Of a DNA stretch of 64,000 nt, positions 2,712 through 12,318 are shown piece by piece. The notes below the pieces were generated by a model. It saw only the letters and a program-made list of their open reading frames with translations, ran no database searches and had not been told where the DNA came from. The position numbers were made by a program, and so were the translations under genes. Source of the DNA: a virus (lineage: Duplodnaviria > Heunggongvirae > Uroviricota > Caudoviricetes); IMG/VR virus record IMGVR_UViG_3300012016_000001, positions 1 to 64,000 of that record. One strand, given 5' to 3'. Every line of letters starts with the position of its first letter. Within the stretch, counting starts at the first letter, position 1.

Positions 2712-2738
2712 CTTAATTGAATCTAGCAATAGGTTCAT

Positions 2739-2813
2739 GGGTGGTTAGCTCAGCTGGCTGGTAGCAAATGACTGTTAATCATTAGGCCGTGGGTTCGAGT
2801 CCCACACCGCCCT
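2739..2813 (+). tRNA. tRNA-Asn (anticodon GTT)
   Basis: Cloverleaf by eye: acceptor GGGTGGT/ACCGCCC (one G.U), anticodon stem AATGA/TCATT with loop CTGTTAA, T-arm GTGGG-TTCGAGT-CCCAC. Confidence 0.85.
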
Positions 2814-2976
2814 CTTAAAGGTGTGCTGCGTCCTTATGGACTACTCAGCAAATTTATTTCCTACGATCATAAATTTGTAAAATTAACACGAATGAAGGGT
2901 AAATGGATCAATCGAGGCAGGAGGCACACCTGTTAAATCAAAATCTGTATTAGAAAGTGAAGTTTACCCTTCTAAT

Positions 2977-3050
2977 GCTCCTTTAGCTCAGTTGGATAGA
3001 GCAATAGCCTTCTAAGCTATGGGTCGTTGGTTCGAATCCAACAGGGAGTA
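2977..3050 (+). tRNA. tRNA-Arg (anticodon TCT)
   Basis: Acceptor GCTCCTT/AGGGAGT (with G.U pairs), D-arm GCTC-AGTTGGATA-GAGC, anticodon stem ATAGC/GCTAT with loop CTTCTAA, T-arm GTTGG-TTCGAAT-CCAAC. Confidence 0.8.
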
Positions 3051-3357
3051 CTAGTATGAAAGAAAAATTAAGACAATGGTTCTATTCAATTAATGTCAAT
3101 AAGTATAGACATTATTTTGAGGAATGGTATTCCAATTTAACTCCTCAACAATTAAGATGGTATGAAAAAATATTCTAGATTAGACGAATTAAAGTAAAAA
3201 ATAAGTGAAAATGAAGAAATTTTTAGTACTCATGTTTGCCTTACTAATGGCTATTAGTTTTTAGAGTTGCACCAACTGTAGTGGTAATCCCAGTCTAAAC
3301 AGTCCTGTTAAAACTGAACTTGTAGTGGATCAAGCTATTAGCTTAGATAACTAGTAC

Positions 3358-3834
3358 ATGTTCATGAATTATGGTGAGAACTATCGTTGGTTTGAAACTT
3401 GCGTTCTTATGGACGATTTCCTAGATGAGGAAACTGATGGAAGTGTTAATATGGTTGTTAATATCTATCAGGTTGCAAAAGGTGATGATAAATCTTTCGA
3501 TGTTAAAGTATTCAAGTTTCAACACTTAAAAGATGGAACTGTTTTGAAAGATTCTGTTGCTGGTTTTTGGATAGAAGATAATCCTTTGAATGATTCAACT
3601 ATAAAGATTGATTACAAGGAAGCCTTTAATCTTGTTCAAAAGGTAAATCTACCTAAACCACATACTAGAAATGCTATTCTAAGGAATCCTCTTGGTCCTC
3701 TAGACACTAATCCACAGTGGGTGTTCGGAAATATCCGTGAACAAATATGGGTGGATGCAACCACAGGAGAAATTAGAAAATCAAATCCAGCATTTCCTGA
3801 TGAATTAAAAATGCCTCTTGGTGAATGGCCCTGA
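3358..3834 (+). CDS. hypothetical protein
   Basis: 158-aa ORF embedded between tRNA genes. No motif recognised. Confidence 0.45.
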   Translation: MFMNYGENYRWFETCVLMDDFLDEETDGSVNMVVNIYQVAKGDDKSFDVKVFKFQHLKDGTVLKDSVAGFWIEDNPLNDSTIKIDYKEAFNLVQKVNLPKPHTRNAILRNPLGPLDTNPQWVFGNIREQIWVDATTGEIRKSNPAFPDELKMPLGEWP

Positions 3835-3919
3835 TTTCACTCTTTGAGCTAGTTGGGAAACTAGCATGTAAAACCGATATTTTTCATAAATTATTAGGAG
3901 CTACGAGTTAGCTCCATTT

Positions 3920-3993
3920 GGGGGTAGTGGTGTAAATGGCTAACACATAATCCTTGCAAGATTAAATTTAGGGTTCGAGTCCCTCTACTTCCA
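3920..3993 (+). tRNA. tRNA-Ala (anticodon TGC)
   Basis: Acceptor GGGGGTA/TACTTCC with a G3:U70 wobble (the Ala identity element). Anticodon stem TAATC/GATTA with loop CTTGCAA, T-loop TTCGAGT. Confidence 0.65.
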
Positions 3994-3997
3994 CATA

Positions 3998-4065
3998 CAG
4001 AAGACACACAGCAAGTGCTTTATAATAAAAAATTTTAGGGAAATTTAATAATTATAAGTCTTCTG
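3998..4065 (+). repeat. clamp repeat unit (CAGAAGAC ... ACAGCAA ... GTCTTCTG)
   Basis: Same architecture, directly after tRNA-Ala. Confidence 0.6.
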
Positions 4066-4070
4066 ATTTT

Positions 4071-4146
4071 GGCTTGTTGAGCCCACTGGAGTGGGAACTT
4101 GACTGTCACTCAAGTAAAACAAAGGGATCGATACCCTTGCAGGCCG
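4071..4146 (+). tRNA. candidate divergent tRNA-Asp (anticodon GTC) with atypical D-arm (5-bp stem, 4-nt loop) and T-loop ATCGATA
   Basis: Acceptor GGCTTGT/GCAGGCC (two G.U pairs), anticodon arm CTTGA-CTGTCAC-TCAAG, T-arm AAGGG-ATCGATA-CCCTT. Total 76 nt, noncanonical. Confidence 0.35.
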
Positions 4147-4203
4147 CTAAATCAAAACTAATGAGTCTCTAAAGTATTTTTAAACAATTAAAGTGTAACC
4201 TGT

Positions 4204-4461
4204 ATGATTAACTCGATTCCTATAATGGACCAGAAGATTATTGATAAGTATTTTCCTGGCCAAGCAGTCAAGTCAATCATGCGTACACCGTTAAAGTCTG
4301 TGAGAGGCTATTCACTTGAAGGAAACAAAGGATTGCTTATAAGCACTCCGAAACTTAAACACCTTCTTGCTCTTTATGCTTCTCAGATAGCGTTACAAAC
4401 AAAATGGAATACTTCCCTTAATAAGGAAGGAGACCATTTGATTTGTCTCTTGTACCCTTAA
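4204..4461 (+). CDS. hypothetical small protein (85 aa) inside the tRNA island
   Basis: ORF only. It lies between tRNA genes, so coding status is uncertain. Confidence 0.2.
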   Translation: MINSIPIMDQKIIDKYFPGQAVKSIMRTPLKSVRGYSLEGNKGLLISTPKLKHLLALYASQIALQTKWNTSLNKEGDHLICLLYP

Positions 4462-4473
4462 ATGGGTAATACT

Positions 4474-4543
4474 GGTCCTTAGTTTAGTGGTAAAACGATG
4501 GTCTCCAAAACCATTGTCATCTGTTCGATTCAGATAGGGCCTG
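4474..4543 (+). tRNA. tRNA-Trp (anticodon CCA)
   Basis: Anticodon stem ATGGT/ACCAT with loop CTCCAAA, T-arm ATCTG-TTCGATT-CAGAT, acceptor GGTCCTT/AGGGCCT with one mismatch. Confidence 0.7.
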
Positions 4544-11063: not shown

Positions 11064-11318
11064 CTTGTTAAATAATGTTAAATTTATTGTGGATTTATAT
11101 TGTTATTTATATATTTAATCCTGTAAAAACGTTCATTATAGTAAAGATAAAATGTTCCAGCACTCACGGCTACAAACTGAGTGACTAGTGTTCAACAAGA
11201 GCGCAGTATTACTATCACAGCTGAACTATAGAGGCAGTGAAGACTTTATGGTCGAACTGAGGGCAGTTTAGTCTGGAACAATCTAAGCTGTTCTCTTTAC
11301 TTGTGAAATTCATAAATA

Positions 11319-11344
11319 CCTTTCGGTTCGTGAGAATAGAAAGG
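11319..11344 (+). promoter_or_regulatory. conserved tRNA-leader hairpin (loop CGGTTCGTGAGAATAG)
   Basis: Stem CCTTT/AAAGG, 4 nt upstream of tRNA-Pro. Confidence 0.5.
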
Positions 11345-11348
11345 TTAT

Positions 11349-11421
11349 GGCGGAATGATGTTTAATGGTAGCATGCTACTTTTGGGAAGTAGTCGAGTCG
11401 GTTCGAGTCCGGTTTCTGCCA
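11349..11421 (+). tRNA. tRNA-Pro (anticodon TGG)
   Basis: Acceptor GGCGGAA/TTCTGCC, anticodon stem CTACT/AGTAG with loop TTTGGGA (G37), T-loop TTCGAGT. Confidence 0.75.
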
Positions 11422-11429
11422 CTATTGTT

Positions 11430-11502
11430 GCAACGTTAGTGTTAATGGTTAGCAAGAGGCCTTGCCAAGGCTTAAGAGTGAGTTCGAATCTCATACGCTG
11501 CT
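11430..11502 (+). tRNA. tRNA-Gly (anticodon GCC)
   Basis: Anticodon stem AGGCC/GGCTT with loop TTGCCAA, T-arm GTGAG-TTCGAAT-CTCAT, acceptor GCAACGT/ACGCTGC (one mismatch). Confidence 0.7.
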
Positions 11503-11646
11503 CTCCACCGTCGAAATGGCTGAGACGTTAAGTAATTGCCAGACAGATACCCTTACTAAAGCAACAAGGGCGTGAATTATAGGTAACCAACGAGAAGAGA
11601 ACCTTTTGAAAGAGCCCCAACCCTAAGTGGAACTGGGTGGGGACCT

Positions 11647-11717
11647 GCGGGATTCGTTCAATGGTAGGACACTAGCCTTCCAAGCCTGTGATGTCGGTTC
11701 GATTCCGGTATCCCGCA
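11647..11717 (+). tRNA. tRNA-Gly (anticodon TCC), weak anticodon stem
   Basis: Perfect acceptor GCGGGAT/ATCCCGC, D-arm GTTCAATGGTAG, loop CTTCCAA, T-loop TTCGATT. The anticodon stem has 2 mismatches. Confidence 0.6.
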
Positions 11718-11887
11718 CCTACAGACTATTATTGCTGCAGAAGTAATAGTATCGAAGCAGCCCATACCCTCCGTCCGGCTGGGAGAAATCGTTCGTTCCG
11801 TACCTGAGCACCGAGGTATCTGTAGAAGCGTTAGTTAGAGTTACCTATGAGGGACGAGATGCCCTGTTGAAACTCGAAGGTGTACAT

Positions 11888-11961
11888 GGTGTAGATGGCC
11901 GAGTGGTTTAGGCGCAAGTTTGTGGCACTTGTTTACGCAGGTTCGAATCCTGTTCTACACC
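11888..11961 (+). tRNA. tRNA-His (anticodon GTG) with genome-encoded G-1
   Basis: An extra 5' G pairs with the C73 discriminator. Acceptor GTGTAGA/TCTACAC, anticodon stem CAAGT/ACTTG with loop TTGTGGC, T-loop TTCGAAT. Confidence 0.8.
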
Positions 11962-11981
11962 CAATTAAATATTTTAATTAT

Positions 11982-12183
11982 GAAAGAAAGAATAAGAAAG
12001 ATTATTGAAAGAATTACTGAACGTAAAATTACAAATGATGATGAGCCTATAGAGATGGATAGTATAGACACTATGGAAGTTATAGTAAGTCTAGAGTATG
12101 AATATGACATCCATATAGATACTATTATAAAGGAGGATTTATCATTAAATGATTACGTTGAGTTAGTTAGGAGCATGGTGTAA
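11982..12183 (+). CDS. acyl-carrier-protein-like small protein
   Basis: IEMDSIDTMEVIVSLEYEYDIHI matches the ACP phosphopantetheine-attachment motif (DSL/ID followed by an acidic helix). The track ORF from 11920 overlaps tRNA-His, so the ATG at 11982 was chosen. The stop overlaps tRNA-Gln. Confidence 0.45.
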
Positions 12184-12252
12184 TGGTAGCACATCTGACT
12201 TTGACTCAGAAGGGAGCGTGAGCCACTGCAGGTTCGAGTCCTGCTGCTCCTA
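12169..12252 (+). tRNA. tRNA-Gln (anticodon TTG) with unusually long (17-nt) variable region
   Basis: Acceptor AGGAGCA/TGCTCCT, D-arm GTG-TAATGGTAG-CAC, perfect anticodon stem TCTGA/TCAGA with loop CTTTGAC, T-arm GCAGG-TTCGAGT-CCTGC. Confidence 0.55.
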
Positions 12253-12292
12253 CTTGTCTCCATTAAGGAGAATTTTAAAGGTGTTTGTTCAA

Positions 12293-12318
12293 CTCACTGG
12301 TTTGCGAAAATAGGTGAG
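12293..12318 (+). promoter_or_regulatory. conserved tRNA-leader hairpin (loop TGGTTTGCGAAAATAG)
   Basis: Stem CTCAC/GTGAG, 7 nt upstream of tRNA-Glu. Confidence 0.5.

Follow-up and report, generated by a model that had tools for sequence, protein, structure and literature searches.

A hairpin standing immediately upstream of several tRNA genes in a phage raises the question of what that hairpin is and whether its role lies with the tRNAs or elsewhere. The window analysed here, a stretch of 64,000 nt, belongs to a crAss-like gut phage. The original prediction listed six such hairpins, described as a conserved loop on variable stems, and proposed that they serve as a processing guide, a protein-binding site or a compact promoter.

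Hairpins upstream of tRNAs in the window

The sequences and coordinates given for the six copies were correct. Seventy-nine related hairpins were used to build a covariance model, which was run over all 64 kb with filters off and returned four strong matches (33.7-44.5 bits) with nothing comparable elsewhere in the window. The degenerate 15-mer first proposed for the loop has three exact copies over the same 64 kb (at 4693, 11325 and 12299), the chance expectation being about 0.002 in 128 kb by our own arithmetic. Four of the six listed hairpins (4685, 7085, 11317 and 12291) fit the family and two (2718 and 5602) are generic, while a further member at 7332-7361 had been overlooked.

4685..4714, + strand: family hairpin, subtype A, 43.5 bits; lower stem AGTGTC/GACACT, core TGGTTCGTGAGAATAG; fold -12.6 kcal/mol, z -4.9; ends 8 nt 5' of tRNA-Met (4722)
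7085..7114, + strand: family hairpin, subtype B, 33.7 bits; lower stem TAGTCA/TGACTA, core TTGCTTGTGAAAGTAG, fully paired; fold -14.8 kcal/mol, z -7.4; ends 3 nt 5' of an acceptor 5' strand, GGGCGGG (7117)
7332..7361, + strand: family hairpin, subtype C, weak match of 12 bits; UUAGUAUC-U-GUCU-GUGA-AGAU-C-GAUACUAA; fold -11.5 kcal/mol; ends 3 nt 5' of an insertion-bearing tRNA-like gene (7365-7459; Rfam tRNA match, 33 bits)
11317..11346, + strand: family hairpin, subtype A, 44.5 bits; lower stem ACCTTT/AAAGGT, core CGGTTCGTGAGAATAG; fold -12.0 kcal/mol; ends 3 nt 5' of tRNA-Pro (11349)
12291..12320, + strand: family hairpin, variant of subtype A, 38.6 bits; lower stem AACTCAC/GTGAGTT, upper helix UUU/AAA, loop GCGA; fold -10.7 kcal/mol; ends 5 nt 5' of tRNA-Glu (12326)
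5602..5631, + strand: generic leader hairpin outside the family; 11 bp, 8-nt loop GUUGCAAA; fold -17.5 kcal/mol; 3 nt 5' of tRNA-Phe; no covariance-model match, type not recurrent
2718..2737, + strand: generic hairpin outside the family; 8 bp, GCAA tetraloop; fold -7.6 kcal/mol; 1 nt 5' of tRNA-Asn; no covariance-model match, type not recurrent

The last two are stable hairpins that have only the AATAG 3' segment in common with the family; their CTAG..TAG form does not recur in related loci and received no model score, and they were rejected as members.

Within the window, the proposed tie to tRNA 5' ends holds for all five family copies, each of which is followed 1-8 nt 3' by a same-strand tRNA or tRNA-like acceptor 5' end, close to the 3-9 nt first given. 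The nucleotide at -1 of the tRNA is mostly U for these copies, and no terminator-like U tract was called among them. A stable hairpin of some kind ends within 9 nt of the start of 14 of the 21 tRNA blocks in the window, compared with 17.6% of control positions, and the majority of these block starts carry hairpins unrelated to the family.

Structure and covariation of the family

In every minimum-free-energy structure the supposed conserved loop of 14-16 nt resolved into a 4-bp helix capped by a tetraloop above a 1x1 mismatch, consistent with the covariance model. Family hairpins consist of a lower stem of 5-8 bp with free sequence and a sequence-constrained apex (upper helix plus tetraloop) adding six positions, for a total helix of about 12-13 bp (range 11-14 bp). 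Going up from the lower stem, the apex starts with a Y·G pair, replaced by another pair in some copies; next come a purine•A (G•A) mismatch and a G·U that does not vary, then three pairs that covary, and at the top a tetraloop of the form GNGA, mostly GUGA. The Y·G position is occupied by U·G (42) or C-G (37), with A-U or G-C in variants.

Pairing was found in 94.7% of cells compared with 66.7% in shuffles, and 216 hairpins fitting the template were recovered from 2.27 Mb against five in shuffles. When only G3, GUGA, U14, A15, G16 and a lower stem were fixed, all three upper pairs still formed in 48 of 49 non-seeded hairpins, by way of 11 pair combinations. G·U makes up 43% of pairs at positions 3-14, the background being 10%. 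At least three subtypes linked by compensatory changes were distinguished, the third recurrent one, subtype C (YGGTCTGTGAAGATAG; the GUCU/AGAU form), being found again in other phages and in crAss001. The lower stems differ in nearly all of the 216 unique hairpins and in every window copy, so that the palindrome is not conserved as a whole in the manner of REP or MITE-type elements. The conserved structured element with variable stems originally proposed is supported, and it survives the covariance search in related genomes that had been set beforehand as its test.

A permuted tRNA-like RNA

The copy at 7085 had been placed before a tRNA 5' half at 7117. This is not a stray half-gene; it belongs to a circularly permuted tRNA-like RNA, of which it forms the acceptor 5' strand.

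7003..7155, + strand: permuted tRNA-like body (fold of 6985-7228, z -4.85), with the T arm and acceptor 3' strand at 7003-7047 and the acceptor 5' strand and D arm at 7117-7155

The linker between the two parts, 69 nt long, contains two hairpins. Compensatory changes in the acceptor and T stems were observed in L363 and L364. At the orthologous place L363 has an identical 30-mer (the 7085 hairpin) and L364 a different subtype, and both retain a hairpin 2-3 nt 5' of the acceptor 5' strand despite the exchange of subtype and clamp.

The order of T arm, closed acceptor stem and D arm is that of YrlA RNA, and in Mycobacterium smegmatis YrlA is cut by RNase P in the acceptor-closing loop (PMC4201824); the 7085 copy occupies the corresponding loop, at the place of that cut. 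The RNA differs from YrlA-type Y RNAs in that the hairpin itself lies outside the described YrlA consensus (Chen et al. 2014, PMC4201824) and in that the GNCGAAN0-1G Ro motif is absent from the permuted RNA of the window. A candidate Ro60 partner is only hinted at, by a vWA/DUF7788 ORF that the window edge truncates.

Spread among phages, mobile elements and hosts

Hundreds of viral contigs carry the same apex on different lower stems, as do cultured crAss-like phages and Bacteroidales genomes, and each of two exact cores was recovered, on differing stems, from at least 120 IMG/VR contigs. Among 28 hairpin-flanked copies in genomes, 26 lie in Bacteroidales or unclassified bins and two in Firmicutes-labelled bins; 94 unflanked chance matches were scattered over all phyla. 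In Xylanibacter ruminicola, a chromosomal contig of 1 Mb has a copy upstream of a DUF2851 gene. Copy number varies: some copies are in tandem, such as the three listed for L322, and single tRNA arrays can hold five to eight, compared with two clear copies and one weak candidate in Kolpuevirus 'frurule' and one copy in crAss001. The low numbers in the latter two phages suggest that the element is dispensable for most genes.

No match in Rfam 15 overlapped any family hairpin, either in the whole window at the gathering score or in 2400-12700 at E<=5; the sole overlap with a listed hairpin was a spurious antisense miRNA at 5600-5631 (E 0.096, well below the gathering score). The literature searched contained no match to the motif. 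The family, absent from Rfam, is widespread among Bacteroidales phages and mobile elements.

Twelve of the 16 apex positions are fixed across hundreds of contigs while the lower stems differ in almost every copy, and the G•A and G·U, although destabilising, are kept across copies rather than repaired. A near-invariant apex on freely varying clamps suggests that a conserved factor reads the apex, and on this pattern the apex is probably bound by one. One alternative is a hairpin with no specific partner, namely a stable, fast-folding cassette (a GNRA loop closed by C-G or U-A) spread among Bacteroidales phages by descent and recombination and maintained as no more than a generic structural insulator or exonuclease block. 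A few discrete subtypes do dominate, as expected for lineages of descent, and generic hairpins occupy the same position before other tRNAs. The fixed apex, the unrepaired G•A and G·U and the exchange of subtypes at an orthologous site with the architecture kept all speak against this view, which seems quite improbable, although conservation of the apex could be due in part to common descent and spread and not to a binding partner.

Strand and promoters

The sense strand folds more stably than the antisense strand in 79 of 79 hairpins (-12.3 against -7.0 kcal/mol); a hairpin on the template strand would contain A•C and C•U mismatches and be about 5 kcal/mol weaker. Ten of 16 perfect TAnnTTTG boxes stand 38-49 nt upstream; some copies have no such box, and none lies inside the element. 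The distance from hairpin to tRNA 5' end is not fixed, varying from 1 to 13 nt. In Kolpuevirus, one copy follows a canonical TTTG-N20-TACCTTTG promoter by about 75 nt and precedes the first gene of the rightward operon by 26 nt. The compact promoter first suggested is unlikely in view of the sense-strand stability, the conserved G·U and G•A, the lack of a sigma-A type box at any fixed distance from the hairpins and the Kolpuevirus copy downstream of a canonical promoter.

An element acting as DNA might also be considered, either as a promoter hairpin recognised by the crAss virion RNA polymerase, by analogy with phage N4, or as a site where tRNA or moron cassettes recombine. Its copies stand directly upstream of transcription units, and no Bacteroides sigma-A promoter (TTTG-N19-21-TAnnTTTG) was found in 1-13 kb of the window, which includes the tRNA region. 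For the crAss-like gp66 polymerase, which favours single-stranded templates, no early promoter motif is known (bioRxiv 10.1101/2020.03.07.982082). Such an element is nevertheless highly improbable: the stable strand is the sense strand throughout, with a loop of 4 nt and a helix of about 12 bp, unlike the stem of 5-7 bp and 3-nt loop that N4-type hairpin promoters form on the template strand a fixed distance before the start site, one copy sits 75 nt inside the transcript from a canonical host promoter, another belongs to the Xylanibacter ruminicola chromosomal contig, and, unlike attC sites with their conserved base, the family conserves its apex.

Neighbouring tRNAs, genes and U tracts

Among 279 unique family hairpins, a same-strand tRNA starts 2-13 nt downstream of 35, a tRNA ends within 20 nt upstream of one, and an opposite-strand tRNA adjoins none. 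The original prediction had named equal frequency away from tRNAs as grounds for giving it up, and this came true in part, since about seven-eighths (~87%) of the copies elsewhere are not beside a tRNA; they stand before ORFs or alone, and are then usually followed by a U tract. At least four T within the 6 nt after the stem were found in 13% of tRNA-abutting copies and 63% of the others, T-richness being the only feature shared after the stem. Copies are mostly co-oriented with neighbouring genes, the downstream same-strand ATG being mostly about 20-60 nt away (range 10-147). The element is not tRNA-specific, and the tRNA-abutting and U-tract classes do not obviously share one role.

A hairpin dedicated to guiding or restraining RNase P or RNase E where phage tRNAs begin, as first envisaged, would agree with the position of all the family copies in the window, with the strong 5'-side asymmetry among the 279, with the prevalence of U at -1 and with retention of the hairpin before the RNase P-type site of the tRNA-like RNA in three phages. 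The large share of copies away from tRNAs makes this decidedly doubtful, as do the unrelated hairpins at most tRNA-block starts, from which it follows that the conserved apex is not required for a leader-clamp role.

Many copies resemble intrinsic terminators or attenuators in their stability (about -12 kcal/mol), their U tracts (63% of non-tRNA copies) and their occasional tandem arrangement. They differ in that terminator apexes are not conserved in sequence, in that the window copies lack a U tract and have a tRNA within 1-8 nt, and in that a same-strand tRNA or ATG follows instead of the end of a transcription unit; no family copy is present where two Kolpuevirus gene blocks converge (~40.5 kb). 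Efficient termination would leave no room for a promoter before ORFs or tRNAs 10-60 nt downstream, and the U-tract copies would therefore have to be leaky or antiterminated.

A regulated attenuator or a nut/put-like antitermination site is another candidate. Hairpin and U tract would halt RNA polymerase or make it pause, in leaders and between temporal gene blocks, with a factor on the GNRA apex switching read-through and the copies without U tracts serving as loading sites. Lambda N binds boxB, and the family resembles boxB as a short hairpin in operon leaders with a GNRA-fold loop, here a GNGA tetraloop on a conserved 4-bp helix, and conserved adjacent pairs; GNRA-type loops are classic targets of arginine-rich peptides. 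Besides the U tracts, copies were observed 30-75 nt after promoters and at the head of the Kolpuevirus structural operon; the leftward operon of this phage has a clear copy and a weak one between its genes. NusA-stabilised pause hairpins in operon leaders are used by Bacteroides RNA polymerase (PMC11685472). Unlike boxB, the family helix is longer and contains a conserved G·U and G•A. No boxA-like linear motif is conserved within 50-80 nt either side (at most 0.25 bit per position from -80 to -1), the five to eight copies in single tRNA arrays would be needless for processive antitermination, and no window copy looks like a terminator. The element is also common to unrelated phages, mobile elements and the host DUF2851 locus, so that no common phage antiterminator is evident. 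Antitermination or attenuation as the whole explanation is accordingly rated improbable.

Possible roles in transcript processing and punctuation

Intercistronic processing hairpins are known from the early RNase III sites of phage T7 (R0.3-R1.3), from the RNase III cut upstream of tRNA-Gln in T4 and from the SP82 sites in Bacillus. The family is similar in having several sense-strand hairpins per genome, located between cistrons, ahead of ORFs and ahead of the tRNA that opens a block. The host RNase III, or a relative that measures from the tetraloop, might cut these hairpins, separating units and leaving short leaders for RNase P. As in yeast Rnt1p AGNN substrates, the apex is conserved and the stem otherwise free, and the loop distance could set the cleavage site; the tetraloop is most often about 14-15 nt from the tRNA 5' end in tRNA-abutting copies read by eye, not as a systematic tally. 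This likeness is an analogy only, Rnt1p being a eukaryotic enzyme that reads AGNN and not GNGA loops. Phage RNase III sites have sequence features in common and depend on the host enzyme, but they are two-turn or internally looped hairpins of about 20 bp or more, whereas the family helix of 11-14 bp with its 1x1 mismatch falls short of two helical turns or of stacked helices with an internal loop. E. coli RNase III, moreover, uses antideterminants rather than a positive sequence code, and the U tract would be left unexplained. Endonucleolytic processing as the main role is considered unlikely. The protein-binding and processing-guide readings of the original prediction both stay viable as candidates.

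The motif most likely marks transcript boundaries. The reading that we tentatively prefer, at a little under even confidence, is that of an RNA hairpin acting in cis to punctuate transcripts, its apex probably bound by a factor: at RNase P sites it would clamp the leader, and at other places it would provide the stem of a terminator or attenuator. Structure, covariation, strand, distribution and positional rules are established by the sequences; transcription, RNase P cleavage, termination and the binding factor are inferred. At the first tRNA of a block, or at the tRNA-like Y-type RNA, as in this window, the hairpin would fill the last ~30 nt of the 5' leader and end 1-8 nt before the putative RNase P site; the leader would be locked into an autonomous fold, and the upstream fragment left by RNase P cleavage would terminate in a hairpin. 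One objection is that the bacterial RNase P protein contacts the leader at -4 to -8, so that a hairpin 1-3 nt from the cleavage site should hinder rather than help the enzyme. Before ORFs, hairpin and U tract together may act as an intrinsic terminator or attenuator, in a leader or between cistrons. The putative apex-reading factor might come from the host or be shared by phages, and might be an RNA-binding protein or a nuclease. Bacteroidales phages, mobile elements and a few host loci would on this account use one module as transcript punctuation.

It is also conceivable, if somewhat unlikely, that the apex, with its GUGA loop, invariant G·U and purine•A mismatch, is the recognition code of a dedicated RNA-binding or RNA-cleaving factor shared across Bacteroidales and exploited or titrated by phages and mobile elements. 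Candidates for such a factor include a tetraloop-measuring endonuclease, an antitermination factor and a host defence or quality-control protein. If this were the case, the family would represent a phage-wide punctuation or decoy code, displayed at many transcript ends.

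The tRNA array and its phage

On the + strand of the window, ARAGORN recognised 22 tRNAs and one tmRNA from 2.7 to 12.5 kb; the remainder of the window is a + strand replication module encoding DNA polymerase A, NrdD, a Dda-like helicase, an RNA ligase and a DNA ligase. The polymerase is nearest to that of Kolpuevirus 'frurule' (51% identity) and then to those of other Crassvirales, indicating a crAss-like phage of Bacteroidales. The following were also found in the array:

10705-11064: phage-encoded tmRNA, tag GENNTTPRAKVVSIVYRAAA
5117-5206: unusually long tRNA-Val
12169-12253: unusually long tRNA-Gln
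12326-12411: unusually long tRNA-Glu
7229-7302: suppressor tRNA, anticodon CTA

The long tRNAs measure 85-90 nt and carry extra arms or insertions. An in-frame TAG was observed within an apparent lipoprotein signal peptide (..LLMAISF*SCTN.., window about 3214-3834), and together with the suppressor tRNA it suggests that the phage translates TAG as sense (code 15-like). Directly after tRNA-Val the tRNA region is closed by a strong canonical terminator (16 bp and a U tract, 12513-12552), which is of the ordinary type and outside the family described below.

Family hairpins in the window

A covariance model built from 79 related hairpins (R1) was applied, unfiltered, to the full 64 kb of the window. 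Four strong matches were obtained, beyond which nothing comparable was found in the window, together with a weak fifth match belonging to a third subtype.

Family hairpins in the window, with R1 scores
4685-4714: 43.5 bits
7085-7114: 33.7 bits
7332-7361: 12 bits, third subtype
11317-11346: 44.5 bits
12291-12320: 38.6 bits

The weak match is followed after 3 nt by a tRNA-like gene with an insertion (Rfam tRNA, 33 bits), and the subtype of the match is recurrent in other phages and also present in the cultured phage crAss001. The original prediction had listed six copies (starting at 2718, 4687, 5602, 7087, 11319 and 12293). All six sequences do stand at those positions and three match the degenerate 15-mer exactly, but only four belong to the family; those at 2718 and 5602 received no R1 score and are generic, and the copy at 7332-7361 had been overlooked. 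A fourth subtype based on the copies at 2718 and 5602 (CTAG..TAG) was rejected, as its form is not recurrent.

The supposed conserved 16-nt loop proved to be no loop at all, since it folds on itself. Its first position, U or C, is paired to G16; next comes a G2/A15 mismatch, replaced by U-A in subtype B (that of the 7085 copy); G3 and U14 form a G·U wobble, positions 4-6 pair with 11-13, and positions 7-10 make a GNGA tetraloop. With a lower stem, or clamp, of 5-8 bp, this apex gives a helix of about 12-13 bp (about -12 kcal/mol). Several resemblances noted by eye were dropped for want of collinearity or a structure match, namely the T arm (GGTTCG), 5S rRNA loop E (GAGAGUAG), the Y RNA Ro site (GGUCCGA), sigma-54 boxes, the K-turn or box C, group II intron domain 5 and integron attC.

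Conservation and distribution

At least 120 IMG/VR contigs contain the exact core GGTTCGTGAGAATAG and, among the matches listed, 120 of 137 copies are flanked by at least five pairs whose sequences differ; the subtype B core TTGCTTGTGAAAGTAG behaves in the same way. The family differs in this from REP or MITE repeats, as its whole sequence is not conserved. Prokaryotic genomes (596 Gb) gave many chance matches to the 15-mer in all phyla, and the hairpin-flanked copies (n=28) were located in Bacteroidales or unclassified bins (26) and in two Firmicutes-labelled bins that may be misbinned. A structural template recovered 216 unique hairpins from 2.27 Mb of viral loci, compared with 5 in shuffles.

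With a lower stem and the unpaired or invariant bases as the only fixed features, all three upper pairs were present in 48 of 49 non-seeded hairpins, through 11 different combinations, including UUC/GAA, CUU/AAG, UCU/AGA, UUU/AAA, UCC/GGA and UGC/GCA. The motif survives covariance analysis in related genomes, one of the two points on which the original prediction had staked it. The Y·G position is replaced by A-U or G-C in variants, and G·U is strongly over-represented at positions 3-14. The sense fold is better than the antisense by about 5 kcal/mol in 79 of 79 hairpins, and most copies run in the direction of the neighbouring genes. Covariation, sense-strand stability and co-orientation together indicate that the motif is an RNA-level one.

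No family matching the hairpins was returned by Rfam searches, either at gathering thresholds or at E<=5, and the motif is undescribed in the searchable literature on Bacteroides terminators, candidate structured RNAs, crAss transcription and the sequence strings themselves. As to whether every hairpin-bearing contig is crAss-like, only 46 of 238 loci have a protein in common with three reference genomes, a count that says little given short loci and divergent phages. Hundreds of Bacteroidales phages and mobile elements carry the hairpin in front of tRNAs, tRNA-like RNAs or ORFs, and we file it as a new, uncatalogued and widespread family of conserved cis-acting RNA hairpin.

Genomic context

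A same-strand tRNA starts 2-13 nt downstream (mode 3-5) of 35 of the 279 unique family hairpins, whereas a tRNA ends within 20 nt upstream of only one and none has an opposite-strand tRNA neighbour. The other 87% or so stand before ORFs (ATG mostly about 20-60 nt downstream) or alone. The proposed tie to tRNA 5' ends therefore holds in so far as a conserved structured RNA lies beside them, but the hairpin is not tRNA-specific, and a determinant for RNase P or E dedicated to tRNAs, as originally suggested, is very unlikely.

Array copies stand before the leading tRNA of a tight block, as seen for Met-Tyr-Thr, Pro-Gly and Glu-Val in the window and likewise in another viral locus, L035. A stable hairpin ends no more than 9 nt upstream of 14 of the window's 21 tRNA-block starts, compared with 17.6% of control positions, so a leader clamp reaching up to the RNase P site is a general rule in this array; the conserved family makes up about a third of these clamps. 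Unrelated stable hairpins end 0-5 nt before the tRNAs at 3920, 4473, 5117, 7229, 7851 and 11647.

At least four T within the 6 nt after the stem were found in 63% of non-tRNA copies versus 13% of tRNA-abutting ones. The window's copies differ from intrinsic terminators in having neither a U tract nor a unit end, and a terminator reading was rejected for them. A regulated attenuator or nut-like site would accord with the U-tract copies, but the lack of boxA excludes a nut site, and the reading as a whole is unlikely.

The DNA upstream of the hairpins is T/G-rich and no conserved motif was found there; perfect Bacteroides -7 boxes cluster 38-49 nt upstream. In the cultured Kolpuevirus, a TTTG-N20-TACCTTTG promoter is followed by one copy after about 75 nt, and the rightward tRNA-plus-structural operon has its first gene 26 nt beyond that copy; the leftward operon has a second clear copy and a weak third candidate (14.3 bits, E 0.53), intergenic. 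Kolpuevirus hairpins stand at about 93770-93799 and 84528-84557 of its record. The single copy in crAss001, at 1879-1908, lies 6 nt before tRNA-Glu. The hosts of the two phages are B. cellulosilyticus (Kolpuevirus 'frurule') and B. intestinalis (crAss001). In the window's tRNA region the host promoter TTTG-N19-21-TAnnTTTG is absent, and near-matches just upstream of the hairpins are accounted for by T/G-richness. The compact tRNA promoter once envisaged is probably not what these elements are. A DNA-level promoter or recombination site is highly improbable, and an N4-type promoter is contradicted by the stable strand being the wrong one.

Two further observations concern individual loci. The sequence GA(T/A)GACAARCCTGTGGGGCGTAAGTA, probably the 5' end of another structured RNA, is conserved just downstream of family hairpins in L007, L018, L077, L158, L273, L305 and L358; it begins 5-10 nt after hairpins of both subtypes in unrelated contigs (about 37 nt in L077). 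L011, a 370-kb viral contig, has nearly identical U-tract copies of the family at 11340-11440 and 11640-11730, where every flanking ORF is on the other strand. A perfect -7 box (TAAATTTG) stops 7 nt short of the stem of one of them, which would be a stand-alone hairpin RNA of about 40 nt.

Permuted tRNA-like RNAs

The tRNA 5' half previously noted at 7117 is not solitary but pairs with an upstream 3' half (7003-7047). The order at this locus is T arm, acceptor 3' strand, 69-nt linker, acceptor 5' strand and D arm, all enclosed by an outer stem. Two relatives, L363 and L364, traced via the neighbouring DUF7873 gene, share the permuted architecture, their acceptor and T stems having changed in compensatory fashion. 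In both, a family hairpin again stands 2-3 nt ahead of the acceptor 5' strand; that of L363 is an identical 30-mer to the 7085 copy, and that of L364 has a different subtype and another clamp.

Circularly permuted tRNA-like RNAs
Window 6985-7228
Window 7499-7646
L363 about 8030-8190
L364 about 7960-8120

In each the acceptor stem is closed by the linker or a 4-nt loop and there is an outer stem (z about -5). The architecture is that of YrlA/Y RNAs, or of a permuted tRNA gene, either of which would to our knowledge be unusual in a phage. The 7085 locus has in common with YrlA-type Y RNAs the order T arm, closed acceptor stem, D arm, and in M. smegmatis YrlA RNase P cuts at the equivalent site (PMC4201824); by analogy, the 7085 copy too would lie directly before an RNase P-type site. 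The RNA ligase of the window phage is encoded at 49159-50553.

A second group of elements occurs in the same region:

ACAGCAA elements in the window
2639-2710
3998-4065
5028-5086
5245-5376
5730-5798
5806-5869
5875-5947
5980-6043
7499-7646
about 9775-9840

These nine to ten elements (59-148 nt) have a closing stem of 8-11 bp, often AAAGGAG.../AGAGG..., with the heptamer ACAGCAA conserved directly after its 5' arm; two enclose tRNA-like domains and none has an Rfam match. They may be a family of Y-like RNAs in which ACAGCAA replaces the Ro-binding motif GNCGAAN0-1G. A Ro60-like partner is only hinted at. The ORF at 1-809, cut by the window edge, matches DUF7788 (39 bits) and the Ro60 vWA domain below cutoff; the TROVE-domain protein gp96 of crAss001 aligns with it at the vWA MIDAS motif only, and no PDB sequence match to a Ro60/TROVE protein was obtained at the window start.

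Possible role and significance

The best-supported reading, which we put forward tentatively, is a modular RNA punctuation hairpin. In the window it would clamp the closing 30 nt or so of the 5' leader, stopping 1-8 nt short of the RNase P site, where the -1 base is mostly U, and cleavage would leave it as the 3' terminus of the fragment upstream. Copies elsewhere that have a U tract would be like terminators or attenuators, placed in a leader or between cistrons. Either way, the same hairpin would close off the upstream RNA.

Conservation is far stronger in the apex than in the clamp, the destabilising G•A and G·U are kept, and subtypes have been swapped at an orthologous site with the design unchanged. 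These sequence features argue for a specific factor, a putative reader of the apex, in a logic similar to that of lambda boxB or Rnt1p substrates. A generic stable cassette without a partner is very improbable. Phage RNase III sites exist in T7, T4 and SP82, and these or leader terminators are the nearest likeness in working; an RNase III-like processing site is nevertheless unlikely, the hairpin being too short for classical RNase III. This alternative and the attenuator or nut-like one overlap the punctuation reading in mechanism and differ in the decisive enzyme or step.

Despite its clear positional rules the hairpin's function may be ordinary; if it is only a favoured terminator or leader stem, its biological interest is modest and its annotation value stays. 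crAss-like phages are among the most abundant human gut viruses, and we know of almost nothing on how their RNAs are made, cut and stabilised. The hairpin probably marks transcript boundaries, as well as odd tRNA-like RNAs overlooked by tRNA finders, and could serve Bacteroides engineering as a portable part, whether insulator, attenuator or processing site. Short and precisely defined, it offers a bait for the host or phage factor that would read it.
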